NCBI GenBank assembly: GCA_902795435.1
Contig: CADBLE010000004.1
Coordinates: 71,601 to 135,600 of the forward strand
DNA from: an uncultured Pseudomonadota bacterium
GTDB lineage: Bacteria; Pseudomonadota; Alphaproteobacteria; Rs-D84
Direction of reading: 5' to 3'
Length of the DNA stretch: 64,000 nucleotides
The position numbers and the translations under genes were made by a program. The notes under the pieces were generated by a model. That model worked only from the letters and a program-made list of their open reading frames with translations. It was not told the origin of the DNA and made no database searches. This document shows positions 3,210 to 56,642 of the stretch, in pieces. Each line of letters begins with the position of its first letter. The first letter of the stretch is position 1.

Positions 3210-4565
3210 TTATTGGTTCAAGAAATCACGTAAATTATCACCAACCAATTGTTTAGAATCGGTTTTGTTCGCATCAACAATTGATATCAAACGCGGACTT
3301 ACAAATACCACCAATTCAGCAAAAGGACTTATCAAAGTTTCAGGTGTTGTAACAAATGCATGGGTTGGAATACCAACGAATACATAGTTATCACCAACAT
3401 TTGACATTATTTTGAAAGATGTCAATTCACCGTTGCTGGTACTCAATACAATTTTAGCATCTATCTTGTTATACCCACCATAATTACCGTATGTACCAGT
3501 TGCACCAACAATCAAATCTGTTTCAAGACGGTCTTCTTTGCCACATTGACCAATATCAAATCTTGATTGCCAACCGTTTGGCAGTGCAAAAGTTCCCTGG
3601 GATATCAAAACCATTTTCGCCTGTTGAGAAATAAACTGTTGTAATGTTTTTGTGTTTATTTCAGGACTTACCACCAACGCGCGTCCTACAACCCCCGGTA
3701 TAGACATGTGAATATTTGTTTCACCGAATGCAGGCAACATATTCATCCAAACAATTGGATTATCTGTTTTTGGATAAACACGATATACATCCATATCCCA
3801 TGCGATTACATATTTTTTAGCACTGACATCTGCGATAATTTTTGCAACTTCCCTTTGTGTTTGATAATTACCTTCAAATACAACTGTTTTATCTTGCCAA
3901 TTCACCAACAGATTTAACACATCTGCACCACGCATAGCGTCTATTATAGCCATTATCATGGTTTCATCTTTTGGCATTTTTATCATAAATTTCCCATGAC
4001 CAGTTATATGTAATTCACCAAACTCTTTATCATAAGAATAATATACACGACCCAATTTAGTAATTAAATCAACCGCGTCAGCCAATGAACCTGTTTTGAT
4101 AGAACCAGTAATTTTTTCAAATGTTTTTTGGTCTTCCAACACAGAAACATCTGTATCTGCCAATAATTTTTCAAGAACATCTTTCACATACATTTTCTTG
4201 AAATCAAAATCAGAAACCTTTAAATCTGGTAATGGGTCACCATTATTTATACGAACAATTTCTATTTTTTCTTCTGGTAATACAGAAACAACACTTTGAT
4301 TATCCCAATCTACATTACATCTTTTTGGTAAATCCAGTGCAAAATGTTGAGCAGTATCTGTGGTCAAAGCCGCCTTTTTCGGGAAAATAGGCACAGATTT
4401 TTCATTTATAACAGAATTTTGGACAACATTTACTGTATCAAATACAGGCATATTTTGTCGTTTATTTGCACACCCATAAACAAATACAGAACACAAACCA
4501 ACGATAAAAAACATCATATTTTTTGCTTGTTTTTGTGCCATCTTCTTTCCTTTTTTATATTTCAT
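3210..4565 (-). CDS. outer-membrane lipoprotein with secretin-like N-domain and C-terminal motif; candidate type IVb-pilus/T2SS secretin (BfpB/TcpC/PilN-like)
   Basis: It has a lipobox (FVYGC). FDFKKMYVKDVLEKLLADTDVSVLED...GSLADAVDLITKLGRVYYSY resembles a secretin N0/N1 domain. The C-terminus ...AELVVFVSPRLISI resembles the secretin hallmark (LLVFVTPRIV). Confidence 0.45.
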   Translation of the reverse strand: MKYKKGKKMAQKQAKNMMFFIVGLCSVFVYGCANKRQNMPVFDTVNVVQNSVINEKSVPIFPKKAALTTDTAQHFALDLPKRCNVDWDNQSVVSVLPEEKIEIVRINNGDPLPDLKVSDFDFKKMYVKDVLEKLLADTDVSVLEDQKTFEKITGSIKTGSLADAVDLITKLGRVYYSYDKEFGELHITGHGKFMIKMPKDETMIMAIIDAMRGADVLNLLVNWQDKTVVFEGNYQTQREVAKIIADVSAKKYVIAWDMDVYRVYPKTDNPIVWMNMLPAFGETNIHMSIPGVVGRALVVSPEINTKTLQQFISQQAKMVLISQGTFALPNGWQSRFDIGQCGKEDRLETDLIVGATGTYGNYGGYNKIDAKIVLSTSNGELTSFKIMSNVGDNYVFVGIPTHAFVTTPETLISPFAELVVFVSPRLISIVDANKTDSKQLVGDNLRDFLNQ

Positions 4566-4578
4566 ATTTATATTTATA

Positions 4579-4902
4579 CTAGATATTCATAATTTTTTCA
4601 AATTCTTCTAGCGTCATTTCATAGATAGGTTTTTGTGTTGGGGTAACCAAATGTTTGACAGATTCAAATCTTTTTTCAAACAAATCCATCGCATTTGTTA
4701 TTTCAGGTGTCAATTGCGCCCCCGACTTTTTTAATCTGTTTCCATATTCTACGATATATTCCAGAACATCTGCCGCAAAGAAACGACCAACATAATTTTC
4801 CAGCGCAATTCCGCCTTTTTCAACACACACAGCCGATAAAACACGCGACATTTCGTTATAAAAATTAGCCAATTTTATATAAGTTTGTATTGATATTGCC
4901 AT
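4579..4902 (-). CDS. hypothetical cytoplasmic protein
   Basis: 107-aa ORF with no recognisable motif. Confidence 0.35.
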   Translation of the reverse strand: MAISIQTYIKLANFYNEMSRVLSAVCVEKGGIALENYVGRFFAADVLEYIVEYGNRLKKSGAQLTPEITNAMDLFEKRFESVKHLVTPTQKPIYEMTLEEFEKIMNI

Positions 4903-4979
4903 CTCTTTTTCCCCATTATGTTTTTTACATTATAAAAACTATTGCCACAAAAACGCAAATAAATTATAATAAGAAAGAA

Positions 4980-5360
4980 ATGAGAATGAAATATTTATTT
5001 TTATTACTTGCTTTAACAGCATGTGCATCTGCAAATCGTGGTTCCATAGATGACGCCACAATATTGAATTGGGAAAATGACGCGGTCACAACCGAACAAT
5101 TTGTTCGTGACCACAAATCATGTCTTGGAATAAAAACCAATAATTATGTTCCTCGTTCCAGAATTGCCAAACTGTTATCCCCAAATCAAAGTGCCCAGAT
5201 GCCTGATTGGGACGGTTTATGGGTTACATTCCAATCTAATGAATACAAAGATGTTGGACAAAGGGCTTTGTTGTCCGTTCCACCTAATACCGCATCAAAA
5301 ACAACGGGATATTACCGTAAATGTATGTTAAAACGCGGTTATCTGTTACGTGCAAAATAA
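4980..5360 (+). CDS. hypothetical lipoprotein
   Basis: MRMKYLFLLLALTACASA gives a signal peptide plus lipobox. The upstream part of the tracked ORF (4890-) overlaps the convergent gene, so I trimmed it to the ATG at 4980. Confidence 0.45.
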   Translation: MRMKYLFLLLALTACASANRGSIDDATILNWENDAVTTEQFVRDHKSCLGIKTNNYVPRSRIAKLLSPNQSAQMPDWDGLWVTFQSNEYKDVGQRALLSVPPNTASKTTGYYRKCMLKRGYLLRAK

Positions 5361-5411
5361 TTTTGTGTGTCCTGTTGGCTATTTACTAAAAAATATGATA
5401 TAATTGTCGGT

Positions 5412-6110
5412 ATGAAGAAAACTATATTCTTTTGGCTGTATTTTATAGTGTCAATCATTTTGGCGGTGTATTTTTCGACCAGAATTATAACCAGTCAAAT
5501 GGGCCGTGGGCCGATATCACAGATAAAAAAAGTTTATATATTCAGTGACACAAAAGAAACCGATATGAAACCATTGGAAATGGCGGTTGGTATTCCACAC
5601 GGAACAGATATTCGTTCAATAGACCTGAACCAGATAAACAACCGTATGTTAAAGGTTCCTGGGGTAAAAAATTCCGCAACCCGTCGTATGCCAAATGGGA
5701 ATATCATAATACAAACAAAACAACATCATGCCGTTGCACTGTTTTTTGATGGACTTTATTATTATCCACTGTCCGAAGATAAAACAAAAATAGATACACC
5801 ATCTGAAACAAGGGACGAAAATTCCATTGTATTTCGTGGAAATTTGGAAGAAATGCCAGATGATTTAACAGAAATTATTAAAACAGTTTCTGTGTTATCT
5901 GAACACATAGATTACATGGATTATATAGAAGCAAGACGTTGGAATTTACACACAAAAAATGGAATTACAATATATTTGCCTGAAAATAATCCTGCGACCG
6001 CAATAAACAAAATAAACATATTAAACCAAACACATAAATTATTGTCCCGTGAATTAGAAATCATAGATTTACGGAACGACGCAAGAATTTTGGTAAAAAC
6101 AAGAAAATGA
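5412..6110 (+). CDS. ftsQ: cell division protein FtsQ-like (bitopic, POTRA-type)
   Basis: It has an N-terminal TM (IFFWLYFIVSIILAVYF) followed by a periplasmic domain, and sits immediately upstream of, and overlapping, the ftsA-like gene. I trimmed the tracked start (a GTG at 5367) to the ATG at 5412. Confidence 0.5.
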   Translation: MKKTIFFWLYFIVSIILAVYFSTRIITSQMGRGPISQIKKVYIFSDTKETDMKPLEMAVGIPHGTDIRSIDLNQINNRMLKVPGVKNSATRRMPNGNIIIQTKQHHAVALFFDGLYYYPLSEDKTKIDTPSETRDENSIVFRGNLEEMPDDLTEIIKTVSVLSEHIDYMDYIEARRWNLHTKNGITIYLPENNPATAINKINILNQTHKLLSRELEIIDLRNDARILVKTRK

Positions 6111-7891
6111 ATTTTTCTAAATCATATATTTTATGTCTAGACATTGGTTCATACGGTGTATGTGGTTTGGTAACACGCGTTATAAACGGAAAAATGGAAC
6201 AATCTTATGCCCATTTTGTAAAAAATCCTGATACTGTTTTTGCATTAAAAAGTGTTATTGACGAACTTGAACAGAAAATCGGTCAGCACCTGACCAGCGC
6301 ATACATAACTGGAAATCTTGGTGAACTTGATTTTCAATTATCAACACAAATAAAACAATTTGGCACACCACACCAAATCACTGAATATGATTTAAAAAAA
6401 CAAATCAACGGAATAAAAATCAAAGATGGTTTTTACAAAATGCATGTTATACCTGTTTCATATAAAACACCTACGAAACAGAATATAACAACAACCCCTG
6501 TATCACAAATTGACACAGAATTGCACAGTGTTTTCAGTGTGATTTCTTATCCAGAAGACAAAACATTAAAAATCAACGAAATTTTACGCAGTGCGCATAT
6601 ACAACCACTTGGATTTTTTGATCCATGTTTTTTACAAGGGCAACTTTATACGCCAAAAACAGGGACAACTTTATTTCTAGATTTGGGTGCAGAATTTACA
6701 ACTGTATCATTTTGGTTTTCCAAGGGACCTTTGTTTATGAAAAAAATCCCATTTGGTCAAAATGATATAACAAAAGAATTGGCTGAAAAAATAAATATAT
6801 CTGAAAAAGATGCAGACGATTTGAAAATATCAATATCAAATACAGTTCCAAATGAAAACGACAGATTTCATCCTGCGGCGGAAACTGGAAAATTTGCTTC
6901 TATTCAAAGGTCTGATATAAATGATGTTTTTCAACCAAAAATACTTGAATTGGTAAATTTGATAAAACAAGAATCTGCCAGATATTTGGATAAATATAAA
7001 CCAAACAAAATTATACTCTCTGGCGGTGGTGCATCTATCCGTAATATAAATTCTTTCCTGGAAAAACATTTCGGTGTACCCGTTGAAAATCATGGTGAAA
7101 TGGCGTCATTGAATGCATTGCTGACTTATATTTGGGACGCATATAAACCAGACCGTGAAAAATTCATAAAAAAACAAACTGCTTTCGATAACAGATTAAA
7201 TAAATTCTTGAAATTATTTAAGAGAAAGAAAATAAAACCAAAACGCAGATTTGTTCCAATCATGCCAAGCACGCTGTGTTTTGATATGAACGATAATTCA
7301 ACATATACAATGTTTGCGTCTGGTGGTATTTCCATGATTCATGTTGATATTATGGACGGTTTATATGTAGATAGAATGGCCGGTGGAATAGACGAACTTG
7401 AAAAAATCAGAATGAAAACAGGTATGCATTTACATACACATTTAATGGTACAAACACCTGCTATTATCGCGGCAGATGCAATAAACGCTGGTGCAGACAC
7501 AATAATAATTCCTGCAGAAACACCTGGAACAGAAAACGCAATCAGAATTATCAAGAAATCTGGCAAACGTTGTGGAATCGCATTAAATCCAGACATTCCT
7601 GCGACATTTATAAAAGACATGTTGCCAATGGTTGATGAAGTTATGGTAATGGCTGTTAAACCGGGCGCTGCGGGTCAAAAATTTGATGACAGTGTTCTTG
7701 AAAAAATAAAATCACTTGATTACACCAGAAAAAAACATGGTCTAAAATATTTAATCAGTGTTGATGGTGGCATAAACCCAGAAACTGCAAAATTATGTTG
7801 GAATGCTGGCGCAAATTTATTGGTATCTGGTTCTTATCTTGAAAACGCACCAGATTTCAGATTGGCAATCATCAGTTTATTGAAGCACTAA
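6107..7891 (+). CDS. FtsA-like actin-family division protein fused in frame to ribulose-phosphate 3-epimerase (Rpe)
   Basis: Residues 1-~375 look like FtsA: LCLDIGSYGVCGLV, ...IILSGGGASIRNINSFLEKHFGVPVE, and an amphipathic basic helix FDNRLNKFLKLFKRKK. Residues ~385-594 carry Rpe hallmarks: IMPSTLCFDM..., MIHVDIMDG, HLMVQTP, VDGGINPETA. No stop codon separates the two parts. Confidence 0.6.
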   Translation: MNFSKSYILCLDIGSYGVCGLVTRVINGKMEQSYAHFVKNPDTVFALKSVIDELEQKIGQHLTSAYITGNLGELDFQLSTQIKQFGTPHQITEYDLKKQINGIKIKDGFYKMHVIPVSYKTPTKQNITTTPVSQIDTELHSVFSVISYPEDKTLKINEILRSAHIQPLGFFDPCFLQGQLYTPKTGTTLFLDLGAEFTTVSFWFSKGPLFMKKIPFGQNDITKELAEKINISEKDADDLKISISNTVPNENDRFHPAAETGKFASIQRSDINDVFQPKILELVNLIKQESARYLDKYKPNKIILSGGGASIRNINSFLEKHFGVPVENHGEMASLNALLTYIWDAYKPDREKFIKKQTAFDNRLNKFLKLFKRKKIKPKRRFVPIMPSTLCFDMNDNSTYTMFASGGISMIHVDIMDGLYVDRMAGGIDELEKIRMKTGMHLHTHLMVQTPAIIAADAINAGADTIIIPAETPGTENAIRIIKKSGKRCGIALNPDIPATFIKDMLPMVDEVMVMAVKPGAAGQKFDDSVLEKIKSLDYTRKKHGLKYLISVDGGINPETAKLCWNAGANLLVSGSYLENAPDFRLAIISLLKH

Positions 7892-8281
7892 TTTACGACC
7901 GTCGCCATTTTGCATTATATTGATATGTATTGTGTTTGATGGCAATTTATCTTTTGCGATATCTGGCCATTCTATCAATGTAATATCATTATCTATCGCA
8001 TATTGCAGACCGATTTCTTCCAATTCAGATTCGTCCCCTATTCTGTATAAATCAAAATGAGAAATCCCATCATAATTTTGGACCAATGTGAATGTAGGAC
8101 TTGGCACAACTGTATCTTCACCACGCAGTGTTTTAATAATTGTTCGTGCAATCTCACTTTTTCCCATACCCAAATCACCATGCAACGCAACTGTTATTGG
8201 TGCATGCAAAGTTTTCGCAAATTCACGCGCCCATGCACGTGTTTCTTCAACATTGTTTAAAATAAAAGTTTTCTGTTCCAT
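7877..8281 (-). CDS. tsaE: tRNA threonylcarbamoyladenosine biosynthesis protein TsaE (YjeE)
   Basis: 134 aa with the P-loop VALHGDLGMGKSEIAR typical of YjeE/TsaE. Confidence 0.7.
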   Translation of the reverse strand: MEQKTFILNNVEETRAWAREFAKTLHAPITVALHGDLGMGKSEIARTIIKTLRGEDTVVPSPTFTLVQNYDGISHFDLYRIGDESELEEIGLQYAIDNDITLIEWPDIAKDKLPSNTIHINIMQNGDGRKLVLQ

Positions 8282-15170: not shown

Positions 15171-16337
15171 ATGGATAAACATATATCTTTTACAACAAAA
15201 AACAAAATTAAAGTCTGCTTTTTTGTCTCTGGTTTTACCGTAGGCGGAGTTGAGACCATCTTTATCAACACCATGGAAGAATTATTGAAAAATCCAAATT
15301 TGGATATTTCAGTTGTAACACACATGAAACTGCGTGAAGCATTGTATGCCGATTGGTTAAAATCACATCCAGAGATACCTGTGTATACCTATTTCCCACT
15401 TGGAAATTGGTTTCAAGATTTAGAACCAAAGTGTCGTGGCCTAATGAAACTGATTCGCAAAATAACATTCAGTTTGTATAAAAGATATCGTCGTTTTATA
15501 TGGCGTAATAAGTTTAAAAAAATGGATGTTTTTATAGATTATAAAAACTTTGAGTTCTTTAGAGAATTGAGTTATATAAAGAAACCAAAAATTGCATGGG
15601 CGCATAGTGCGTTATGTTATTTTGAACGAGATAAAAACTTCCTAAAAAAAGCATCACAATACGATAAAATCGTGTGCCTTACAGACGACTTTAAGGAACG
15701 TTTTAAGAGCAAATATCCAGAATATGCAGATAAAATAGTTCGTATATATAATCCAATAAACGAAAAACATATTCAGCAATTATCAAACCAGGGAAAGTCG
15801 CCACGTGGTAAATATTTTTGCCATGTATCAAGACTTAGTAAAAGCAAAGATATAAAGACTCTGTTGGATGCATTTGACATATTTTATAAATCTCATAAAG
15901 ATGTTAAGTTATATATTGTTGGGGATGGTCCTCTTGCAAACACTCATAAATCTTATGCAAGCACACTAAAATCAAGCAAAAATATTATCTTTACAGGAAC
16001 GCAGTATAATCCTTATATATTTATGAAAGGTGCAATTGCTAATATATTGTCTACTGAATATGAGGGATTGCCAACTGTAGTTTTAGAATCAGTGGCACTG
16101 GGTGTCCCATGTATATCCGCAGATTGTGAAAGCGGACCACGAGAAATATTGTTAGATGGTAAGGGTGGTTTGTTATTTGAAATTGGTGATACAGATACCT
16201 TGGCAAAACACATGGAAACAGTTTATAAATTTCCAGCAAAAGCCAAAAGACTGTCAAATGTAGCACAGAAAAAATTGACTAGATTTAATCCGACAATAAT
16301 ATCTAAGCAAATCGTTGATTTAATAAAAGGTTTATAA
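15171..16337 (+). CDS. glycosyltransferase family 4 (GT-B, RfaG-like)
   Basis: Contains the EX7E-type motif EYEGLPTVVLESVALGVPCISADCESGPREIL. Confidence 0.7.
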   Translation: MDKHISFTTKNKIKVCFFVSGFTVGGVETIFINTMEELLKNPNLDISVVTHMKLREALYADWLKSHPEIPVYTYFPLGNWFQDLEPKCRGLMKLIRKITFSLYKRYRRFIWRNKFKKMDVFIDYKNFEFFRELSYIKKPKIAWAHSALCYFERDKNFLKKASQYDKIVCLTDDFKERFKSKYPEYADKIVRIYNPINEKHIQQLSNQGKSPRGKYFCHVSRLSKSKDIKTLLDAFDIFYKSHKDVKLYIVGDGPLANTHKSYASTLKSSKNIIFTGTQYNPYIFMKGAIANILSTEYEGLPTVVLESVALGVPCISADCESGPREILLDGKGGLLFEIGDTDTLAKHMETVYKFPAKAKRLSNVAQKKLTRFNPTIISKQIVDLIKGL

Positions 16338-16338
16338 A

Positions 16339-16740
16339 ATGGTAAAATATGATTTGTTGAATTTTACTGTCCATGGTGATTACGAAGGATCACTTGTTGC
16401 ATTGGAAAAAGGTGCAGATTTTCCATTTGATATTAAACGTGTTTATTACATTTGGAACACAGATAAAAATGCAGTTCGCGGAAAACACGCACACCGTAAA
16501 TTAGAACAAGTTATTGTTTGTACATCTGGTTCATGCGATTTTATTTTAGATGATGGACACGAACGCACAACCGTTCATTTAGATAACCCTGCACAAGGTT
16601 TGCACATCAAATCAAATATATGGCGTGAATTTACAAATTTTTCACCAGATTGTGTCGTTATGGTGTTAGCCAGCGAACACTATGATGAATCAGATTATAT
16701 TCGCGATTATGATACATTTCTAAAAGAGATTGCAAAATGA
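16339..16740 (+). CDS. dTDP-4-dehydro-6-deoxyhexose 3,4-ketoisomerase (FdtA/WxcM-like cupin)
   Basis: 133 aa. HGDYEGSLVALEKG...KRVYYIW...RGKHAHRKLEQVIVC matches the FdtA/QdtA cupin pattern. Confidence 0.6.
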   Translation: MVKYDLLNFTVHGDYEGSLVALEKGADFPFDIKRVYYIWNTDKNAVRGKHAHRKLEQVIVCTSGSCDFILDDGHERTTVHLDNPAQGLHIKSNIWREFTNFSPDCVVMVLASEHYDESDYIRDYDTFLKEIAK

Positions 16741-17687
16741 TAAAGATAGAAAAATATTCAAAAGACAAACAAAAAATATGGGATGATTTTGTAAACACTT
16801 CCAAAACCCCTATGTTTATGTTCAACCGCAATTTTATGGAATATCATTCAGATAGATTTGTTGATAATTCTTTGATGTTTTACAATGACAAAAATGAATT
16901 GGTTGCTGTTTTGCCTGCATCAATTCATGGTCAACAAATTCGTTCGCATGGCGGATTGACATACGGTGGATTTTTTGTAAATGATATGATGAAACAACAC
17001 ACAATGAATGATTGCGTATCTTCGTTGGTTGAATATTTGGGTGCTAATAACATAAATCACTTTATTTATAAATCTGTGCCAACTATTTATAACACTTTGC
17101 CAGCCGAAGAATACATGTGGCCATTATGGCAGGCCGGATTTAAATTGGAACGCACAGATGTTTCTTCGGTTATAGATTTACAAAATCAGTTGAAAATGCC
17201 AAAGGGACGCAAAGCACAAATATCACGTGCCAAACGCGAAGGTGTTGAAATCGTTGAATCATCTGATTTTAATACATTTATTGATTTGGAAAATTCTGTT
17301 TTGTCCGCACGACATGGGGTACGTGCGGTGCATACCGGTGCAGAATTAAAATTATTAAAATCAAGATTTCCAGAAAATATCAAATTATTTGTCGCAAAAT
17401 ATAACAATCAAATGATTGCTGGGACTTTATTATTCATTTATCCAAATGTTGTTCACACACAATATATGGCTGCAAATGAAGTTGCACGCGAAATTGGTGG
17501 ACTTGATTTATTGATAAAAACATTGATAGATAAATACACAGAATCAAAAAAATGGTTTGATTTTGGTATTTCAACCGAACAGGGTGGCGAAGTGTTTAAC
17601 GATGGCCTTTGTGCGCAAAAAGAAGGTTTTGGTGCACGCACAATCGCCTATAATTTTTATGAATGGAAATGTGGCAAAGGGAGATAA
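16737..17687 (+). CDS. FemAB-like / GNAT-fold acyltransferase (putative sugar N-acyltransferase)
   Basis: 316 aa whose architecture resembles FemAB-family GNAT proteins that occur in O-antigen loci. The assignment comes from context and fold-like pattern only. Confidence 0.4.
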   Translation: MIKIEKYSKDKQKIWDDFVNTSKTPMFMFNRNFMEYHSDRFVDNSLMFYNDKNELVAVLPASIHGQQIRSHGGLTYGGFFVNDMMKQHTMNDCVSSLVEYLGANNINHFIYKSVPTIYNTLPAEEYMWPLWQAGFKLERTDVSSVIDLQNQLKMPKGRKAQISRAKREGVEIVESSDFNTFIDLENSVLSARHGVRAVHTGAELKLLKSRFPENIKLFVAKYNNQMIAGTLLFIYPNVVHTQYMAANEVAREIGGLDLLIKTLIDKYTESKKWFDFGISTEQGGEVFNDGLCAQKEGFGARTIAYNFYEWKCGKGR

Positions 17688-17691
17688 TAAA

Positions 17692-18837
17692 ATGATAGAT
17701 AAAATCGCTATTGAACATTTAAACAAAATTAGTAAAGAGAAACTTCTGAGAAAAAACGGTTTGATTTGTTATACTTATAATGATGCTATAACAGATACGG
17801 AATATTATAACCCACAATGTATGAATATAGGTGATTATATTCAATCGTTGGCCGCAAAACAATTTTTTCATTCTATCGATGAGTTTATAGATAGAGACCA
17901 GCTTGGAGAATATAATGGCGAAAAAATAAATATGATATTAAATGCTTGGTATTTTATTTGGAAGAAAAATAAAGTTTTTTCTAAAAAAATTAGACCTTTA
18001 TTAGTGGCTGTTCATATAAATAATCCCGAAGGCGTAACGGAAGAAACAATAAAATATTTTAAAGAAAATGAACCTGTTGGATGTCGAGATTATCAAACAA
18101 GAGACTTTTTGTTGAAACACGGAGTTCAGGCCTATTTTTCGGGCTGTTTAACATTAACTCTTGGTGAAACATATAAAGTTTCTGAAAATAAAAGAAATGA
18201 TACCATTTATTTCGTAGATTATAAAATGGGAGATAAAAAAAATAAATTAATAGATGATAAGCTCAAGCAAATTATAAAAAAACATCCAAGAGGTAATATC
18301 CGTTATAAGACACACTTGTATCCATTAGATAAAGATTGTTTAGGGGCTTTATATGAAGCTGAGTGTTTAATCAAAGATTATGCCACAGCAAAATTAGTTA
18401 TAACACAAAACATACATTGTGCGTTGCCTTGTTTGTCTTTGGGAACCCCGGTGATACTTGTAATACCAGAATTTGATACAAAAAGGTTTTTAGGTATATA
18501 CAATATGTTTAATTATGTTGGTTTTAATGATCAAAATGAATTCTTATGCAATATAAACACAGATGATAATGGAAATATTGTAAATACAGACGAATATAAA
18601 AAATACGCTAATTTTTTAAAAGACATATGTATGAAGTTTATGCATATAGATAAAATACCAGGAATACATTGTAAAAAAGTATTTTTTAAATATCATCAAC
18701 TTGATACAAGAGAATATAAAATAAAACAATCGTTAAAGATTTTCAAAAGAATAAGAAACGGTAATAAACGAACAATTGTTTTATTTGGATTTATAAAAAT
18801 TCACTATACTAAAAAAGGGCATAAACATGGATTATAA
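17692..18837 (+). CDS. polysaccharide pyruvyl transferase family protein
   Basis: KLVITQNIHCALPCLSLGTPVILV resembles the PS_pyruv_trans core (ITTRLHxxIxAxxxGTPxIxI). The tracked start at 17557 overlaps the previous gene by 130 nt, so I trimmed it to the ATG at 17692, which has an AAAATG context. Confidence 0.5.
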   Translation: MIDKIAIEHLNKISKEKLLRKNGLICYTYNDAITDTEYYNPQCMNIGDYIQSLAAKQFFHSIDEFIDRDQLGEYNGEKINMILNAWYFIWKKNKVFSKKIRPLLVAVHINNPEGVTEETIKYFKENEPVGCRDYQTRDFLLKHGVQAYFSGCLTLTLGETYKVSENKRNDTIYFVDYKMGDKKNKLIDDKLKQIIKKHPRGNIRYKTHLYPLDKDCLGALYEAECLIKDYATAKLVITQNIHCALPCLSLGTPVILVIPEFDTKRFLGIYNMFNYVGFNDQNEFLCNINTDDNGNIVNTDEYKKYANFLKDICMKFMHIDKIPGIHCKKVFFKYHQLDTREYKIKQSLKIFKRIRNGNKRTIVLFGFIKIHYTKKGHKHGL

Positions 18838-19825
18838 ATTAACAATTATTATGTCTAATTATAATCAGGCAAACCTTATTGGTGGTGCGATAGATTCTGT
18901 GTTGATGCAAAAAACCAATTTCCCATTTCAATTGATTATCACAGATGATAATTCTACGAAAGACGATAGTGTAAAGATATTAAAACAATACGAAAAGAAA
19001 TATCCTGATATAATCAAAGTGTTATATAACAAGGAAAATGGACGCTATCTTAAAAATGTATTACGTGCCAAGGCAATTACTAAAACACCTTATTTTACTT
19101 TACTGGACGCAGACGATTATTGGACTGATGAAAATTATTTACAAAATGCGGTTGATTATTTAGATGCAAACCCAGACAAAGTGATATATGCACGTAATGT
19201 TGAATGTTTAGATGAATCTGGCAAAAAATGGTTGTTTATTCCAGAAAATACACCAGATGGTGATTTTACAATAGATGACTATTTGAATAACCACATTGTA
19301 ATTCCACAAACAACAGGTGGCGTATTCAGAAATGTTATTTTTGCACATGGTATCCCAAAGATTATGAGTGATGCCATTGGAACCGTTCACGAACGTTCAT
19401 TTGAAGGCGATTTTGACCGGTTTGTAATGCACCTTAAATATGGTGGTGCACATTTTGAAAATAAAGTATCTGGGGTTTATCGTGTTTTATCAAGTGGCAT
19501 TTGGTCGCGTATGAACACATTTGAAAGACATGTAATCCAGGCACAAACATTGATTGATTACAATGAATACTTTGAACATAAATATAATGATTTTTTTATA
19601 AAGTCTGCGTGGGGTGCATTAAATGTTGCGATGGATTTTATTAAACAACCACAACCAAATGCTACTTTTTCGGTTGAGTCGCAAAATGCGTTTTTTAGTG
19701 CTTTGACAGAATGTATGAAAAACACTGATTTATTGGTACAAAAGCCACAAAAATTAAAAGACAAAATTCGATTGAAAATTTATACAAAATTACAAAAAAA
19801 ATTGACTAGCAAAGGATTGATATAA
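18827..19825 (+). CDS. glycosyltransferase family 2
   Basis: N-terminal GT-A pattern: LTIIMSNYNQANLIGGAIDSVLMQ...LIITDDNSTKDDS...LDADD. Confidence 0.7.
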   Translation: MDYKLTIIMSNYNQANLIGGAIDSVLMQKTNFPFQLIITDDNSTKDDSVKILKQYEKKYPDIIKVLYNKENGRYLKNVLRAKAITKTPYFTLLDADDYWTDENYLQNAVDYLDANPDKVIYARNVECLDESGKKWLFIPENTPDGDFTIDDYLNNHIVIPQTTGGVFRNVIFAHGIPKIMSDAIGTVHERSFEGDFDRFVMHLKYGGAHFENKVSGVYRVLSSGIWSRMNTFERHVIQAQTLIDYNEYFEHKYNDFFIKSAWGALNVAMDFIKQPQPNATFSVESQNAFFSALTECMKNTDLLVQKPQKLKDKIRLKIYTKLQKKLTSKGLI

Positions 19826-19826
19826 A

Positions 19827-20900
19827 ATGAAACATCCAAAATTTTCTATAATTTGTCCGGCTTTTAATCATGAAAAATATGTTGCTTGGTTTATAGACAG
19901 CGTATTGGCACAAACTGTTTCCGATTGGGAATTGGTTATTGTTGATGATTGTTCGTCTGATAATACGGCAAAAATTATAAAATCTTATGCTGATAAACGT
20001 ATCAAATTTATTCAACATAAAATCAATGGTGGAATAAATGCCGCAATAAATACTGGGGTTGAAAATGCATCTGGGGATATATGGGTTATGGTCGCATCTG
20101 ATGATGTTATGTATCCAAACGCATTGGAAAAGATTGGCGATGCCTTTGATAGTAATCCAAACACAGTTGCGGTTTATTGCAATCTGGATGTGATAGACGA
20201 AAACAATAATCCACGAACAGATGTTGTTATGCCAGAATTAAAAAATCGTTCGCGTGCTTCCTTTTTGCATGATGCTTTTATGTATGGAAATATCCTTTAT
20301 GGACCGGGAATGTCAATGCGCGCAAAGGTTGCAAAAAATATGTTCCCTGCCACACCTGCAAATTGCATATACCAAGATTACATTCAAAATATTCAATTGT
20401 TGATAATGGGTGATGTTTTTGTATTGCCAGAAAAAGTTATAAAATATCGTGTTACGCACGATCAAAAAAATATAAGTGCCGCTGGATTTTCCACACAAAT
20501 GCGTTGTATTTTGGAAACAGACAGTTTGATGGACACTTTTTTTGATATCAAAGATGTTGACTTATTAAAAGATATGTTTGAAAAAGAAATTAAAGAAACA
20601 GGTATAACCATTAAAAAATCTGGCGATATAAAATATTTTCTGGGGCGTATGGCAATGTTGTCACACAATGATGCACGCAAAACCTGGGGTTTTCATCAGA
20701 TAATGGAATCTTACAATGTGGATAGAACAAGACTTTTCAAAGAGTATGATTTTCAATTTCGTGATTTGGTCGCTTTGGTAAAATTATTTCAGCCATCTGA
20801 ATATGCACGAAAATACAAGAAATATAAAAATCTTTTCAATTTAATGCTTGTTGTATCTGTAATGTTATTATTAACCAGTATAATTGGAGTAATATTATGA
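19827..20900 (+). CDS. glycosyltransferase family 2 with a C-terminal TM
   Basis: GT2 signature [25 protein letters not shown]...[12 protein letters not shown]...ASDD, with a hydrophobic C-terminus. Confidence 0.7.
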
Positions 20901-21982
20901 TTAAATTTTTAGATCTTGAAAAAATAAATAACCGTTTTCGTGGTGAAATGGATGCCAGAATCAAAGATGTATTAGATTCTGGTTGGTATTTGTCTGGTAA
21001 ATGGAATGATGAATTTGCAAAACATTTTGCAGAATTTTGTGGGACAAAACATGCCGTTGGTGTGGCAAACGGTTTGGATGCAATAAACCTTATTATTCGT
21101 GGTTATGGTTTTGGTATTGGCGATGAAATAATTGTGCCGGCTAATACTTATATTGCGACAATATTGGCAATTTCTGAAAACGGTTGCACACCAGTCTTGG
21201 TTGAACCAGATATAAACACATACAATATTGACCCAGAAAAAATTGAAGAAAAAATCACATCACGAACAAAAGCAATAATAGTTGTTCATCTTTATGGTCA
21301 GGCTGTCCAGATGGCAAAAATATGGGAATTGGCAAAGAAATACAACCTGAAAGTCATTGAAGATGCAGCCCAGGCGCATGGTGCAATGTATAATGGAAAA
21401 CGTGTTGGTAACCTGGGTGATGCGGCAGCGTTCAGTTTTTATCCTGGCAAAAACCTTGGGGCACTTGGTGATGCAGGTGGTGTTACAACAAATGATACTG
21501 AATTGTTTGAAAAAGTTCATGCCATTGCTAACTATGGTTCCGACTATAAATATCATCATATTTATAAAGGGGTTAATTCACGCCTTGATGAAATTCAGGC
21601 GGCATTATTGGATGTTAAATTACCTTATCTTGATACCGATAATACACGTCGTCGTGAAATAGCAAAATATTATCGTGAAAACATCACGAATCCTAAAATC
21701 ATATTACCAAAAACATACGACGAAAATGCACATGTTTGGCACGTGTTTGCTGTCAGATGTGAGAATCGTGATGAATTATGCAAATATTTAAATGATAATG
21801 GTGTACAAACAAATATTCACTATCCAACCCCACCACACAAACAGGGTGCATACAACGAATGGAATAACCAATCTTTTCCAATTACAGAAGAAATTCATCA
21901 CACAATAATGTCTTTGCCAATGTCACCAGTGATGACAGATGATGAAGTAAAACAAATTGTTGATTTGGTAAATAAATTTTAA
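20897..21982 (+). CDS. DegT/DnrJ/EryC1/StrS-family PLP-dependent sugar aminotransferase (FdtB-like)
   Basis: 361 aa. ...[13 protein letters not shown]..., the DAAQAHGA motif and ...[20 protein letters not shown]... with the PLP-binding Lys. Confidence 0.8.
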
Positions 21983-21985
21983 AAA

Positions 21986-22012
21986 AAGGTGGTTTTATAC
22001 CACCTTTTTTTT
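21986..22012. terminator. bidirectional intrinsic terminator (aggtggtttt-ataccacct)
   Basis: taaaaaaaggtggttttataccaccttttttttatg lies between the convergent aminotransferase gene and the tail-fibre-like gene. Confidence 0.6.
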
Positions 22013-22514
22013 ATGCACAAAGTCCGCTTACCTGCCAACGCGCTCGTAATGATACCTCTTGTCCTGAACCATATCTACTACTTAGCATAAATCCTGTTGT
22101 TGTTTTGCTGTTTCTCTTTGTAAAAACCCAACCCCATGCGTTGATAGAATCTGTTGGTTCGTTCATAGCAATTATGTGATAATTTGTATCTGCCATTGTT
22201 ATAGGCAATGTTATTATATTACTGTCTGATGAATTTGTAGAAACCAATCCACCCATTTCAACCCAACCAGATTTGTATTTACGATACCATGTGTAATTGT
22301 TTTCCGCCGTTGGAAATTGTGATTCAACAACATAATCTGCATTGGTTAAATCTGGGATTTCGCTTTGTTTAGCCAACACAGTTCCACCGACTGTTTCACC
22401 ATCATGGACACGCAGTGTTTTATTTGTTATATCCATGGTCACTTCACCGATTGCACCAGTAAAATTATCATTTTCAGATGCGGTTCCGCGTCTGATTTGT
22501 ATTTGTCTTGACAT
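22011..22514 (-). CDS. phage tail-fibre N-terminal domain protein (Mtd_N-like), probable prophage remnant
   Basis: The N-terminus MSRQIQIRRGTASENDNFTGAIGEVTMDITNKTLRVHDGETVGGTVL matches the conserved IQxRRGT...GE..xDTDT..L.vGDG.T.GG start of phage tail fibre / major tropism determinant proteins. At 167 aa it is short, so it may be a fragment. Confidence 0.5.
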   Translation of the reverse strand: MSRQIQIRRGTASENDNFTGAIGEVTMDITNKTLRVHDGETVGGTVLAKQSEIPDLTNADYVVESQFPTAENNYTWYRKYKSGWVEMGGLVSTNSSDSNIITLPITMADTNYHIIAMNEPTDSINAWGWVFTKRNSKTTTGFMLSSRYGSGQEVSLRARWQVSGLCA

Positions 22515-22833: not shown

Positions 22834-24678
22834 TTAAATCTTTCTGCCCCTTTCCTGTTCTGTTTTTATGCGTTCCAATATTGCTTTATATTTTTCACGA
22901 CCATTTACCAATGCCATCTCAAATTCGTGTCCCAATTCGCTATCAGAACCCGCAACCAATTGTTTTACAGTTGGAATTGTTCCATTATCTAACGAATTTC
23001 TGATTCCATTTATAATGGCATTTTTTTCCATTTTAACCATTATTTTGCCTTCGTCCGACATACCAATTTCACCACTGGTTCCAATATAAGACATGTGTTC
23101 TTCCAGATTTCTGTTTTGACCAATTTCTGGGATAATAAAAACATTTCCCAATTTATCTGGGAACCATGCAACACCTTCTTTGAATAACGGACGCCCCAAC
23201 AATTCAAACAAATTATAATATTTACTGTTAAAATCCATTGCGGAACAAAAACTGATAAATGTAGATTTTGATACACCCAATGGACAATATGGCGCAAACC
23301 CAACACAGTATAATTGTTTTTGGATATCTTTCATTTCTTGTTTCGTATATCCCAATATTGCCATTTTTTCCTGCATCATTTCTTCCAATTTCAAGAATGT
23401 ATATCCGCCATGACAATGTGCAAAAATATTCAGATTTCTGATATATCTTTTTGCCAATTCAACATCTATTTTTTTGCCGTCTTGGGATATACGTGGCAAA
23501 ATTGCTATATCAAATAATTTTTTGATATACCTTGGGTTTGTTTGTTCGGGTGAATCATTATCAAATTTTTTCCTAAGGATATATCTTTCCACCCTGAGTG
23601 AAACCAACGCATGTAATCTGCGACGACCTTTTTCAAAAGCCATTCTCATACGGGCATGACCATCATTAAATGAATATTTTACATCTTCTGGCTCACCAAA
23701 ATCATATACAACACTGTAAATTCCTATATTGTCTTGTAATCCATTTGTATCCAACAGATATTCAATACTTTTCATATATCCACTTGCTTTTTTAGGGTCA
23801 TCAGCACCATTTCCGCCCAACACCAAAACACTTACTTCGTCTATTGGAATTTGTTCTACACTCTGGTATCCATATTCGTTTTCTAAACTCTTTTCTACCC
23901 TTTTTGCAATTTCAACATTACTGCGTAAATCTTCTACATCATTAAAAACACGTGCAATAACTTTTTTCTGGTGCGGATTTATTATGTCTGTTCTGGTTTT
24001 TATCTGTTTCAATATTTTTGCACTGCGTTTTTTGTATTCTGGAAAATTATATAATCTGACTGTCAAATTTATTATATTATCTGCCACTTCTGTATCCAAT
24101 GATGCCGATAACAAAGCAACATTTATCATTTCAAACAGATTATCTATGACAGAATTATCTATATTCAAAACAAAATTATTTTCATTGTGAAATTTTAACA
24201 ATTTAGAAATTCGTATAATACTGGAACCAGTATTCAGATAATCAAAAATTTGACTTAAATATAATTTCTTTTTAATTCCACCAACACTCTGTGCAATTAA
24301 ATACAAAAAAGATAAATTTTTTTCAGAATATTTTTTGTTTAATTCTTCATATATTTTGTTAAACACATAATCAGATATTTCTGGATATTTTCCAACAGCC
24401 AACAATAACGTTTTGTTATTTATAACAACTTCATAATTATTCAACATAAATTTGAAAGATTCTATTGCTTCGTCTTTCGGCAATTTTTCAAGAATTTTGA
24501 TGTATAATTTCGTCACATCTGGCAAAACATCATTATTACAATAATTTACAAACGCCAATCTGTGTAATTCTTTGTAAAAATTATCCAAAACATCTGAAAT
24601 ATCAGATTCATCAACAGAATCTGACATTTTTATTATCAAATCATTAAAATATAAATAATTATCTAAATCTTTGCTCAT
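22834..24678 (-). CDS. large orphan protein; possible alpha/beta-hydrolase-like enzyme with a Cys nucleophile elbow (AHCHGG); effector-like
   Basis: 614 aa with no signal peptide, a helical N-terminal half, and a C-terminal half carrying VLVLGGNGADDP and NIFAHCHGGYT (Sm-x-Nu-x-Sm). It lies beside tRNA-Thr. Confidence 0.4.
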   Translation of the reverse strand: MSKDLDNYLYFNDLIIKMSDSVDESDISDVLDNFYKELHRLAFVNYCNNDVLPDVTKLYIKILEKLPKDEAIESFKFMLNNYEVVINNKTLLLAVGKYPEISDYVFNKIYEELNKKYSEKNLSFLYLIAQSVGGIKKKLYLSQIFDYLNTGSSIIRISKLLKFHNENNFVLNIDNSVIDNLFEMINVALLSASLDTEVADNIINLTVRLYNFPEYKKRSAKILKQIKTRTDIINPHQKKVIARVFNDVEDLRSNVEIAKRVEKSLENEYGYQSVEQIPIDEVSVLVLGGNGADDPKKASGYMKSIEYLLDTNGLQDNIGIYSVVYDFGEPEDVKYSFNDGHARMRMAFEKGRRRLHALVSLRVERYILRKKFDNDSPEQTNPRYIKKLFDIAILPRISQDGKKIDVELAKRYIRNLNIFAHCHGGYTFLKLEEMMQEKMAILGYTKQEMKDIQKQLYCVGFAPYCPLGVSKSTFISFCSAMDFNSKYYNLFELLGRPLFKEGVAWFPDKLGNVFIIPEIGQNRNLEEHMSYIGTSGEIGMSDEGKIMVKMEKNAIINGIRNSLDNGTIPTVKQLVAGSDSELGHEFEMALVNGREKYKAILERIKTEQERGRKI

Positions 24679-32191: not shown

Positions 32192-33397
32192 TTATGGCAA
32201 ATTGGTTTGTTCCGGTGCACTGAAACGCCAACCACGGAATGTTTGACCTTTCTTGGTTGCCGCTTTGACTGGCGTACGTACATCTTCGCCATACGTTGCG
32301 GTACCCGCATTGTTTGCGGATATATCCGCCGCACTTGCATCAGACCAATTAATGTTAATAACATTTGCCTCACACATGGCTGGACCCGATTCAATAGCCC
32401 CGAACATCGCAGCACGGAACGCGAGGTTGGTCGAACCCGTGTACTGCACGTTGCTCGCACAGTAGCTAGCGCAGCTGCCACTGCAATTCCACGCGTCGTG
32501 GAAGTCGGTGTAGAACACCCAAGGGGAGAGCACCGCTTGCATGTTGCCACTTCCATCTTTATATCCGGTTACATTACAATAACAATATTGTGCCCCCGTT
32601 TGACCCGTTTCATCCGTTAAATTTGATGTTATTGTTGGGTTTGTCCATGTATAACTATTATTATCACCTGCCTGTGTAGAACAACGACCCTGACCAACCA
32701 ACACACCCTTTGACGAACCATAATCAACCGCCCATGTGTTATTATCGCTTATGCCATAATATGATTGTCCATTTGATGCGCTTTCAATGAATAAACCACT
32801 GTTATTTACAAATGCACTGTTTTCACCCCTACCGGTACCAATTGTAGATGTTAAATTCAATCCCTGTTTCAAATGCCAACCGTTCACGCATGCCGTTGGT
32901 TCACATGTATCGGTACCGGCACCGTAATAATCATTACCAGATACCGCCGTTGCGTGCGCGATATTTGTGAATGATGTTCCCATATTATTTATATCACATG
33001 CACGATAACATTGTGTATCTGATGATGCACCGTCTGCGGAATTTGCATAGCCCGTTGGACATGTTTGTATACCCTGTGGCGTGGTTTGATTATATTGGAC
33101 ATTACCACTGATTCCCGGGCAAAACGAGCCCGCCGGACATGTTATTACGGTTTCAGAATCTGCAGGCAAATATTGTCCCGCGTTTACGATATAATCTATG
33201 ATATCGTATTCCGCGACCGCGTTTACGGTGCCTTCGTATACACTATCCATATTGTCTGCAGTTGCCGCATTGGTATATGTATAATCTTCCTGCATATAAC
33301 CGTCATTTGGGAATGAGTCGGTATGACTTGGTTCTGCAATTGCCGGTGCAACAAAGCCCATTGCAAGCGCGCTGGTTAAAAAGATTTTTTGTGACAT
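32192..33397 (-). CDS. Sec-exported cysteine-rich, Gly/Thr/Ser/Asn/Tyr-rich protein encoded by a GC-rich, compositionally foreign gene
   Basis: Signal peptide MSQKIFLTSALAMGFVAPAIA|EP. The mature part has about 22 Cys in paired arrangement. Its GC content is visibly much higher than its neighbours, enough to spawn spurious antisense ORFs. It has its own upstream hairpin terminator at 33421-33440. Confidence 0.55.
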   Translation of the reverse strand: MSQKIFLTSALAMGFVAPAIAEPSHTDSFPNDGYMQEDYTYTNAATADNMDSVYEGTVNAVAEYDIIDYIVNAGQYLPADSETVITCPAGSFCPGISGNVQYNQTTPQGIQTCPTGYANSADGASSDTQCYRACDINNMGTSFTNIAHATAVSGNDYYGAGTDTCEPTACVNGWHLKQGLNLTSTIGTGRGENSAFVNNSGLFIESASNGQSYYGISDNNTWAVDYGSSKGVLVGQGRCSTQAGDNNSYTWTNPTITSNLTDETGQTGAQYCYCNVTGYKDGSGNMQAVLSPWVFYTDFHDAWNCSGSCASYCASNVQYTGSTNLAFRAAMFGAIESGPAMCEANVININWSDASAADISANNAGTATYGEDVRTPVKAATKKGQTFRGWRFSAPEQTNLP

Positions 33398-33655
33398 GGT
33401 TACTCCCTTCTTTTCTTTTTTTTAACAAGAAAACCACCATAAACATTTGGTGGTTGGAGGTTAGTAACAATTAAAACAGAAATTGTGCCGTTTATTTATG
33501 TATATCACGACCCTCCAACCATAATTGAAGTTGGAGGCATTTTTCGTCTGCTTTACGACGCTGTTTTAACCGGGTTACTACACCCCACCGATAAAAATTC
33601 TTATCGACATTTTTATCATAGCAATTTTAGAAAAATTTTTACAAGTAAATTTTAT

Positions 33656-34726
33656 TTACATCAAAACGGCGGTGATTTGTTCCTGCATTTGGAAAGTACC
33701 CAGAACTATCCACCCAATGATAATAGACACCAATATAATACCAATACTATTCAGAACACTGGATATAGATTCCATACGGCGAACTGATTCTTCCATATAA
33801 TCTTTCGCGATATCGTCCAGATTTTGTGCAAAATCGTTCATATCTGAATAAATCATTAAATCGCCAACGATTTCACTGTTTGGAAAATCTTTGCCCGTCA
33901 ATGCCAGCGCAGAACCCAAATTTTCACCGTTTGCAATATGATGCAGGGTTTCTTCTAATATATTTGATAAATATCTGTTTGATGAATCCATCAACAAACG
34001 CAACGCATCTGGTACCGATACCCCCGCAGACACCATTGCCGCCAATGACATCAGCCAACCAACAGATGTTTGTAATTTATAAATATTCCATGGTGGTAAT
34101 TTATCAAATAAAGTTCTGAGCCGTCCCGTCCATATTGGCAAAGATAACCATACAACAGATATCAAACCGACCAAGCCCGCTGCGAATACATACCAATATT
34201 TATTTGCGAAATCTGATACCCATATCAGGGACGCCGCCGTGCCACGCCATATAATATCACTGCCCGCGGCCTGGGCCAATGGTGGAACCAAATATATTCC
34301 AACCATAATAATTATACCTATTGTCAATAAAAACAAAAATAACGGATATGCCAACGCAGACCACATTGCGCGTTTAATACGCCTTATTCCGCCGACAACA
34401 CGCGATACATTTTCAAGTGAAACCAATAAACTGGACACATTACCAGACATCAACAGCAATGTTTCTTCGGTTGGAACCCAACCACGTGTGGCCTCACTGA
34501 AAGTCATACCTTTTTCCAGGTTTTGTTGAATTTCACGCATTGCGATTGCAAATGGTTCATCTGGTTTTCGGCCGTCAAATGATTCTATCATTTCAATACG
34601 GTGCAACGCGTCCATCAATGTAAAATTATTACGCAACAGAGATGCGATTTTTCTTGAAATCGCCATACGTTTATCAGTATTTGTTCTAAAAACCAGTTTT
34701 GCATACAGCAAATCTAATTTAGTCAT
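33656..34726 (-). CDS. type IV filament inner-membrane platform protein (GspF/PilC/TcpE/PilR family)
   Basis: 356 aa with two T2SSF-like repeats (…LMDALHRIEMIES…GMTFSEATRGWVP… and …VPDALRLLMDSSN…GENLGSALALTG…) and three TM segments. Confidence 0.7.
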   Translation of the reverse strand: MTKLDLLYAKLVFRTNTDKRMAISRKIASLLRNNFTLMDALHRIEMIESFDGRKPDEPFAIAMREIQQNLEKGMTFSEATRGWVPTEETLLLMSGNVSSLLVSLENVSRVVGGIRRIKRAMWSALAYPLFLFLLTIGIIIMVGIYLVPPLAQAAGSDIIWRGTAASLIWVSDFANKYWYVFAAGLVGLISVVWLSLPIWTGRLRTLFDKLPPWNIYKLQTSVGWLMSLAAMVSAGVSVPDALRLLMDSSNRYLSNILEETLHHIANGENLGSALALTGKDFPNSEIVGDLMIYSDMNDFAQNLDDIAKDYMEESVRRMESISSVLNSIGIILVSIIIGWIVLGTFQMQEQITAVLM

Positions 34727-34729
34727 CTT

Positions 34730-54425: not shown

Positions 54426-54426
54426 T

Positions 54427-56193: not shown

Positions 56194-56642
56194 TTATTTA
56201 CCCATTTATCTAATGCAGTTATTGGTGTGTATAATACCCAAAACCAAATTGCCAACCATATATTATGTATTAAATTTAACCATGTAAAATTTGATACAGT
56301 CAAACCAAAAATTCCAAGACATATAAACACCATAAATACATTTATAGCATTATTGTCAGTGCGTGTTAAATCTATGAATTTTTGGAAACCGTTTATTGCA
56401 TAAAACAAACAAAACATAAAAGACCACAATAATGTTATATCACATCTGTAATCTATCAAGAAACAAAATAAAAAAGCATATAAACTGAAACCATTTGTTG
56501 GTTTTACAAAAGAATAATAAAATATTGGAATTAAAGCCAACATACCCGCTGGGTTCCAAAAAGATACTGATAAATACCATAAAAACAAGGTAATCAAAAA
56601 CGGAAAAGAATTTCTTAAAAATGTTTTCATTTCATATATCAT
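56190..56642 (-). CDS. mreD: rod shape-determining protein MreD
   Basis: 150-aa polytopic membrane protein located between mreC and mrdA. Confidence 0.6.
   Translation of the reverse strand: MIYEMKTFLRNSFPFLITLFLWYLSVSFWNPAGMLALIPIFYYSFVKPTNGFSLYAFLFCFLIDYRCDITLLWSFMFCLFYAINGFQKFIDLTRTDNNAINVFMVFICLGIFGLTVSNFTWLNLIHNIWLAIWFWVLYTPITALDKWVNK

Follow-up and report, generated by a model that had tools for sequence, protein, structure and literature searches.

A fusion of ftsA and rpe downstream of ftsQ

The analysed stretch of DNA (hereafter, the window) comprises 64,000 nucleotides (nt) of contig CADBLE010000004.1, assembly GCA_902795435.1, from an uncultured alphaproteobacterium of the GTDB order Rs-D84, and has a GC content of 34%. 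Directly downstream of the cell division gene ftsQ, on the plus strand, the window contains one open reading frame (ORF), from ATG 6107 to TAA 7889-7891, which encodes a protein of 594 amino acids (aa) with a computed mass of 66.5 kDa and a pI of 8.8. Two Pfam domains are detected in this single frame: FtsA (PF14450, residues 191-327, 43.2 bits against a cutoff of 31.8) and ribulose-phosphate 3-epimerase, Rpe (Ribul_P_3_epim, PF00834, residues 386-577, 151.5 bits against a cutoff of 21.1). The ATG of the fusion shares an ATGA overlap with the stop codon of ftsQ. The division ring of bacteria is tethered to the membrane mainly by FtsA, whose membrane helix usually forms the extreme C-terminus. 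In the actin-like fold of FtsA, an SHS2 subdomain (1C) takes the place of subdomain 1B of actin, and subdomain 2B binds the C-terminal peptide of FtsZ. Rpe interconverts D-ribulose 5-phosphate and D-xylulose 5-phosphate. The original prediction, made from the nucleotide sequence alone, that one 594-codon ORF reads through an FtsA-like body and its helix into Rpe, is confirmed by the ORF and the two same-frame domains. Its further claim that neither a stop codon nor a Shine-Dalgarno (SD) sequence separates the domains also held, with no stop codon between them and no SD-like core before the methionine at the start of the epimerase, Met386.

Proteins with the same architecture were readily identified in public databases. 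More than 120 clusters with 56-100% identity were recovered when 5.8 billion proteins were searched by a word index; all of them carry both Pfam domains, and nearly all are exactly 594 aa long. A scan of one genome per GTDB species yielded 56 related fusion loci (L003-L058). The metagenome-assembled genomes that bear the fusion are labelled Candidatus Enterousia, 'Alphaproteobacteria bacterium' or, in the case of termite guts, 'Rickettsiales bacterium'. The ORF is single and continuous in these loci, with a length of 588-604 aa, except for two loci truncated at contig ends and one, the most divergent, at 552 aa. The 54 untruncated species loci are the base of the residue and codon counts given below. 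Enterousia belongs to Rs-D84, gut bacteria with genomes of 0.75-1.0 Mb, in which the non-oxidative pentose-phosphate enzymes, except transaldolase, have been reported (PMC12306168).

When the FtsA half alone was used as the query in a HMMER search of 1.84 billion cluster representatives, all matches better than approximately E=1e-17 were fusions or contig-truncated fusions. These represent about 25 clusters at 50% identity, the most distant of which are 25% identical in the FtsA half; standalone FtsA proteins of ordinary type (400-440 aa) first appear at E ~1e-14. A profile search started from the deepest branch retrieved only more termite-gut fusions (546-571 aa), followed by ordinary FtsA. 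Because the gene is a single ORF throughout the Rs-D84 loci and the closest relatives of the FtsA half are all fused, the fusion is ancient and lineage-wide. The comparison of orthologous loci, proposed in the original prediction as a way to refute the fusion, did not reveal the two-gene state in any related genome; all untruncated loci are fused.

Pairwise omega values, calculated by the Nei-Gojobori method (NG86) for ten independent species pairs, lie between 0.04 and 0.11 for the FtsA part and between 0.03 and 0.09 for the Rpe part; the intervening linker gives 0.09-0.32. These low values point to strong purifying selection on both domains, and those for the linker indicate that it is translated and constrained. 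Taken as an ORF, the fusion is confirmed as genuine, neither a chance reading frame nor a feature of one assembly.

Two domains and the junction between them

Residues 1-345 appear to form a divergent but complete FtsA that is predicted to bind ATP. The nucleotide motifs LDIGSYG (D12, G14), DLGAEFTT (D192, G194) and SGGGA (G306-308) are all recognizable; D12, G14, D192, G306 and G307 are invariant (54/54), whereas G194 is present in 53 and G308 in 52 of the 54 species. Loss of these motifs was seen solely in the P0135/P0298 lineage described below. In an AlphaFold2 (AF2) model built from a 25-sequence alignment (mean pLDDT 81.5, pTM 0.57), the pLDDT over these residues is about 90. The top 19 PDB matches of the model in a Foldseek search are all FtsA, from Staphylococcus aureus, Vibrio, Xenorhabdus, Escherichia coli and Thermotoga maritima, with TM scores of 0.66-0.74 over about 380 columns.

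The junction between FtsA and Rpe (residues 346-384) consists of an amphipathic helix followed by a polybasic tract. The amphipathic targeting sequence FDNRLNKFLKLFKRKK (residues 360-375, nt 7184-7231) runs from the C-terminal half of a long predicted helix onward. To quantify amphipathicity, the best 14-residue stretch within the 45 residues before the barrel was scanned for in the 55 sequences where the junction motif could be located. The hydrophobic moment of the best 14-mer is 0.74 in the window protein and has a median of 0.68 across the 55 sequences, which ranks at about the 99th percentile among all 14-mers of the respective protein. The linker that follows, KRKKIKPKRRFVP, is predicted to be disordered, with pLDDT below 50 at residues 373-390, and the net charge of the last 20 residues before the barrel is +9 in the window protein, with a median of +7. 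An amphipathic and basic junction was found in 55/55 sequences, despite drift in the sequence itself. The invariant residues W343 and P387 are 38-47 residues apart, with differences in whole codons only; in the 25-sequence alignment, the junction is ungapped save for one in-frame deletion of 2 residues. This pattern matches the signature of a membrane-binding amphipathic helix with a polybasic patch, that is, a putative FtsA targeting sequence made internal. As originally described, the epimerase begins shortly after the helix, but the gap up to I385 comprises 9 residues (IKPKRRFVP), not 10.

The C-terminal part, residues 385-594, is an Rpe barrel with every catalytic residue intact and is predicted to be catalytically competent. 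The PF00834 alignment covers profile positions 3-196 of 198, and the protein passes the NCBIfam rpe subfamily model NF004076 (177.2 bits against a cutoff of 165). In the Foldseek comparison, where Rpe ranks next after the FtsA chains, the barrel superimposes on the Rpe structure 2FLI with a TM score of 0.80, an rmsd of 3.2 Å and 34% identity, and the metal and catalytic residues H412, D414, H445 and D553 align with H34, D36, H67 and D176 of 2FLI. These four residues and the methionines that cushion the enediolate, M416, M447 and M515, are invariant in 54/54 species.

Gene order around the fusion

The canonical ftsQ-ftsA-ftsZ order was predicted to be broken at this locus, and it proved to be broken across the whole order. 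In the window, neither a search for the tubulin signature nor tblastn with the E. coli FtsZ protein as query revealed an ftsZ; none was found in the 10 kb past its right end, where MreB, RnpA and YidD are encoded instead; and none within 10 kb on either side of the fusion in any fetched Rs-D84 locus (motif search and tblastn). The lone ftsZ match among the fetched loci belongs to an unrelated Anaerolineales locus. The statement that rpe replaces ftsZ holds positionally, there being no ftsZ at the locus, and no further than that. Location between ftsQ and ftsZ in the division and cell wall (dcw) cluster, a typical though not strictly defining trait of FtsA, is accordingly not seen here, and the position expected for ftsZ is occupied by tsaE.

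Synteny in Rs-D84 is essentially fixed. Lol-type ABC genes and two conserved hypotheticals are followed by the lipoprotein-ftsQ-fusion array on the plus strand, then by the convergent tsaE-uvrB pair (in the window, too, uvrB comes after tsaE), and then by asmA and aspS. In deep-branch loci, too, the fusion comes after ftsQ, and tsaE and lpxC/lpxK are found nearby. The closest standalone FtsA (P0288) is encoded in murC-ftsQ-ftsA-ftsZ, the ordinary dcw cluster of an unrelated organism; it was therefore dropped as a clue to the pre-fusion state and retained only as a control.

The mechanically defined ftsQ ORF begins at GTG 5367. A start at ATG 5412 (M16; MKKTIFFWLYF...) would retain the transmembrane helix and is more plausible than one at M45. 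On identical contigs, FtsQ was automatically called as a 203-aa protein from M45, which would drop the transmembrane helix FFWLYFIVSIILAVYF. The small lipoprotein upstream of ftsQ likely starts at ATG 4980 (MRMKYLFLLLALTAC, with a lipobox), and the top promoter-like site, at 4942-4970 (11/12 matches), lies just 5' of this start, as a consensus match only. The coordinates of these and other features are collected in Table 1. The lipoprotein gene and the two minus-strand genes next to it are conserved beside ftsQ in nearly every Rs-D84 locus and have no Pfam match.

Table 1. The fusion ORF, its parts and other features of the window, with positions counted from the first nucleotide of the window
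Feature	Position	Strand	Evidence and remarks
Whole fusion ORF	6107..7891	+	594 aa; one ORF in all related loci that are not truncated
FtsA core, residues 1-345	6107..7141	+	Actin-like ATPase with 1C/SHS2 insert; fold, sequence and motif matches
Long predicted helix, residues 347-371	7145..7219	+	DSSP on the AF2 model
Polybasic disordered linker, residues 372-384	7220..7258	+	pLDDT, charge, selection
Rpe (beta/alpha)8 barrel, residues 385-594	7259..7888	+	PF00834, NF004076, 2FLI alignment, fold
Met386 ATG, candidate internal start	7262..7264	+	Not conserved; no SD-like core 5'
ftsQ	5367..6110	+	PF03799 (FtsQ_DivIB_C), 32.6 bits; directly 5' of the fusion in all loci
Small lipoprotein gene	4890..5360	+	Heads the lipoprotein-ftsQ-fusion array; 5' of ftsQ in nearly all Rs-D84 loci; no Pfam match
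tsaE, convergent	7877..8281	-	PF02367, 113.4 bits; overlaps the fusion 3' end by 15 nt; conserved 3' neighbour order-wide
Putative lipoprotein gene	3210..4565	-	451 aa; no Pfam match
Conserved gene	4579..4902	-	107 aa; no Pfam match
Surface-polysaccharide cluster	15171..21982	+	GT1 and GT2 glycosyltransferases, FdtA-like isomerase, GNAT-type acetyltransferase domain protein, pyruvyl transferase, DegT-type aminotransferase
Mtd_N domain protein	22011..22514	-	167 aa; N-terminal domain of major tropism determinant
Protein adjoining the Mtd_N protein	22834..24678	-	614 aa; no Pfam match
Type IV pilus/type II secretion-like cluster	32192..38301	-	T2SSF platform, T2SSE ATPase, PAP_PilO-like protein, unannotated neighbours
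VirB4/TrbE-type ATPase	44250..46664		Type IV secretion system
Elongasome genes	53283..57496	-	mreC, likely mreD, PBP2-like transpeptidase, rodA/ftsW

Elsewhere in the window, elongasome genes are present, and mreB lies about 5 kb past the right end (L090:7761-8810), so the rod-shape machinery is retained despite the fragmented dcw cluster. The pilus and secretion machinery is notable in a genome of about 0.9 Mb. The Mtd_N domain is of the type found in receptor-binding proteins of diversity-generating retroelements.

Interpretation and comparison with known systems

The most probable explanation, to which we assign a probability of roughly three in four, is a genuine ancient fusion that was fixed in the Rs-D84 ancestor and combines FtsA, an internal membrane anchor and a competent Rpe in one polypeptide. 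Translation from ATG 6107, probably coupled to that of ftsQ via the ATGA overlap, would give a single 66.5 kDa product, with the ATP-binding FtsA body followed by the internal amphipathic helix and polybasic tract and then by the Rpe barrel, joined by beta-1, the strand at its N-terminus. The helix and basic tract would hold the protein at the inner face of the cytoplasmic membrane. Because the linker is disordered, the globular domains are probably not rigidly docked, and with the barrel attached through its N-terminal side, its catalytic face (the C-terminal strand ends) should point away from the membrane. Most probably, the stop codon of ftsA was lost beside a downstream rpe in the Rs-D84 ancestor, and the fusion was then maintained. 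Loss of the stop codon, yielding a divisome-metabolic fusion, was one of two options in the original prediction, and it is the one favored by the single in-frame ORF in 54/54 loci, the whole-codon indels and the selection on the linker. Membrane binding, both biochemical activities, FtsZ binding and the stop-loss origin are what we infer from sequence and models.

Several observations weigh against this reading. The FtsA half fails the NCBIfam equivalog model TIGR01174 (64.5 against a cutoff of 175.85) and is also under the cutoff of NF007009 (22.5 against 409), and the Rpe half fails the TIGR01163 equivalog (159.5 against 212.6). The Rpe loops are non-canonical, with GLYVDR for GxFVPN and PGAAGQ for PGFGGQ; because these loops are lineage-specific, the substrate specificity is uncertain. 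Given the sub-cutoff scores and the odd loops, the activity of either half could be altered. A helix followed by a 23 kDa domain is an unproven geometry for the predicted FtsA membrane anchor. Furthermore, some deep-branch proteins from termite guts, 546-571 aa in length (P0143, P0144, P0151 [L058:6098-7756], P0185 and P0216), have a short basic linker and no clear amphipathic helix. Finally, catalysis is not what maintains the fusion everywhere, because one lineage lost both active sites and kept the protein.

Among the helix-poor proteins, P0216 (L084:10001-11698) apparently comes from a high-GC genome, so the fusion does not seem to be confined to AT-rich genomes.

The lineage without active sites is represented by P0135 (L088:10001-11770) and P0298 (L089:3001-4773), which share 75% identity and the same synteny and are AT-rich (25% GC for the locus and 20% for the gene). 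Their FtsA motifs are lost through the substitutions D12S, D192N and G194E and the deletion of GG306-307 of the adenosine motif, and in their Rpe parts three of the four metal and catalytic residues are replaced (H412Y, D414T, D553C), yet the ORF still encodes 589-590 aa. Omega for this pair is 0.36 in the FtsA part, 0.20 in the Rpe part, 0.32 in FtsQ and 0.09 in TsaE. P0129 is similarly degenerate. The possibility that many deep-branch fusions lack the HxDxMD motif was discarded, as the alignment shows that only P0129 and the P0135/P0298 pair are truly degenerate. This small sample suggests that a polypeptide of the P0135/P0298 type has a function that requires neither active site. The three proteins may represent a doubly 'dead' scaffold.

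The main rival of an active fusion, and one that is compatible with it, is that the Rpe barrel was recruited by the membrane-anchored FtsA as a module for structure or oligomerisation and is kept for divisome architecture, instead of or besides metabolism. Rpe proteins are typically dimers or hexamers, so a co-opted barrel would make FtsA multivalent. The degenerate proteins, in which the ORF was retained under selection after the active-site residues of both halves had gone, are what such a role would explain, as is the remarkable constancy of architecture and length across the order. Against this stand the main lineage, window included, where the seven Rpe residues are invariant and omega is as low as expected of an active enzyme, and the lack of confident interdomain docking in the AF2 model, given the disordered linker and the pTM of 0.57. 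The degenerate cases themselves number two or three, all from extremely AT-rich genomes, in which selection is often relaxed, and NG86 is a crude measure. On balance, we regard a purely or partly structural role as a minority possibility.

A somewhat more speculative extension, which we consider doubtful and in which the fusion would be more than a passive product of genome shrinkage, is that the barrel has become an integral, membrane-proximal structural or oligomerising part of the FtsA anchor, one that outlived both dead sites in some lineages and elsewhere couples division or envelope synthesis to the supply of pentose phosphates such as ribulose 5-phosphate (Ru5P), perhaps together with an unusual or missing FtsZ. 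Ru5P is the precursor of Kdo.

It is less probable still that the one ORF gives rise to two proteins, with free cytosolic Rpe produced by initiation at Met386 or by proteolysis of the linker, and with FtsA keeping its helix at the C-terminus. The internal ATG in IMPS that the original prediction offered as its second option does exist, at 7262-7264 rather than at 7261, exactly one residue before the beta-1 strand of Rpe, in the window as in other species, and the disordered linker, with its many Lys and Arg residues, would be within reach of proteases. However, position 386, before PSTL, is Met in only 23 of the 54 species; in the other 31 it is Leu (26 species: TTA in 16, TTG in 7, CTG in 3), Ala (4) or Tyr (1), so that 24 species have TTA, CTG, GCN or TAC at this codon. 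In addition, the 25 codons preceding the beta-1 strand contain no ATG, GTG or TTG in 20 of the 54 species, and no ATG in 30. The next invariant methionine, M394, is located inside the barrel, past the substrate-binding Ser388, and a start at M394 would therefore truncate the Rpe fold. An SD-like core of at least 4 nt precedes about half of the gene starts in the window, compared with 9% of background ATGs, and is missing before Met386; this argument is weak, because the fusion's own ftsQ-coupled start likewise lacks an SD, which leaves its absence indecisive. A scan for internal promoters and terminators gave no excess of sites over shuffled sequence and no conspicuous one at the junction. A stop and a start would be easily regained, yet none has been in the 54 untruncated loci or the approximately 25 deeper clusters. 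An internal start at Met386 is thus ruled out as a conserved mechanism by the codon at the site and by the start-less linkers. Post-translational cleavage in the polybasic linker is possible and counts against a single mature product, although it has no positive support.

That the N-terminal half is some other actin-like ATPase, for example a PilM-like one, and not an orthologue of FtsA, is very improbable. The scores under the NCBIfam FtsA cutoffs, weak matches to PilM and MreB and the type IV pilus-like cluster in the same window would be in line with such an identity. Both PilM and MreB are nonetheless ruled out, since FtsA comes first by sequence and by fold: PilM ranks below FtsA in Foldseek (TM 0.49-0.65), and FtsA is ahead of PilM for the N-terminal half in the PDB sequence search. 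Moreover, deep-branch orthologues match PF02491 (SHS2_FTSA), the FtsA-specific insert, the gene always directly follows ftsQ, here with the ATGA overlap, and the junction contains an amphipathic helix of the FtsA type.

An assembly or sequencing artefact, in which an indel or a chimeric join merged two adjacent genes, has nothing in its favor beyond the prior rate of such errors in metagenome assemblies and is ruled out for practical purposes. The identical protein is recorded on 4 contigs, and the two returned come from separate ENA assemblies. There are 56 related loci, and the architecture is the same in 54/54 untruncated genomes, which stem from many studies and from a range of hosts that includes cattle, sheep, horse, chicken, human and termite. 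Purifying selection, moreover, acts in a single frame on the two halves and the linker alike.

The fusion also has a practical consequence. Public names for the protein (P0033, P0068, P0216 and others) are 'ribulose-phosphate 3-epimerase' or 'hypothetical protein', and the FtsA half is in none of them, so name-based reconstructions and surveys of Enterousia or Rs-D84 could miss FtsA and score it as absent. Among the papers open to searching, none was found in which FtsA, ribulose-phosphate 3-epimerase and fusion occur together, and FtsA and FtsZ are unmentioned in the Enterousia and Rs-D84 genome papers. What is new is the domain architecture; both component families are well known. The case bears on the freedom of the FtsA anchor, with a helix buried between FtsA and a 23 kDa enzyme and selected order-wide, and on whether an enzyme of central metabolism can be localised to, or used by, the divisome. 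The doubly degenerate lineage offers a natural test of scaffold function.

Compared with canonical FtsA (E. coli 7Q6D, Vibrio maritimus 7Q6F, T. maritima 1E4G/4A2A, S. aureus 3WQT), the N-terminal half shares the actin-like fold with 1C/SHS2, the nucleotide motifs, the place after ftsQ and an amphipathic helix past the core that is predicted to bind the membrane. It differs in its low identity (about 15-18% in structural alignments), in scoring below curated HMM cutoffs, in having the membrane helix internal, ahead of a polybasic tract and an enzyme domain of 210 residues, and in not preceding ftsZ, unlike the control P0288. The 665-aa FtsA of Inediibacterium massiliense (P0296) shows that FtsA can tolerate extra domains, but in another lineage and with other partners (precomputed Pfam matches PF02597, PF14451 and PF01479).

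With canonical Rpe (Streptococcus pyogenes 2FLI, potato 1RPX, Synechocystis 1TQJ, human 3OVP), the C-terminal half shares the (beta/alpha)8 barrel of the ribulose-phosphate-binding superfamily at 33-36% identity; it also has all four metal ligands (H/D/H/D), both catalytic Asp residues and the three methionines of the cushion. In contrast to these enzymes, the fused barrel has no N-terminus of its own, beginning 9 residues past the FtsA helix, carries the lineage-specific loops GLYVDR, IIPAE, PGAAGQ and SGSY, and falls below the TIGR01163 equivalog cutoff while remaining above that of the NF004076 subfamily.

Rosetta-stone fusions usually join functionally linked partners; we know of no functional link between FtsA and Rpe. 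As in such fusions and in those formed by loss of stop codons or intergenic regions in reduced genomes, two adjacent, unrelated genes have probably merged here, in genomes of 0.75-1.0 Mb. In contrast to sporadic fusions seen in one strain, FtsA-Rpe is stable across an entire order and under strong selection.

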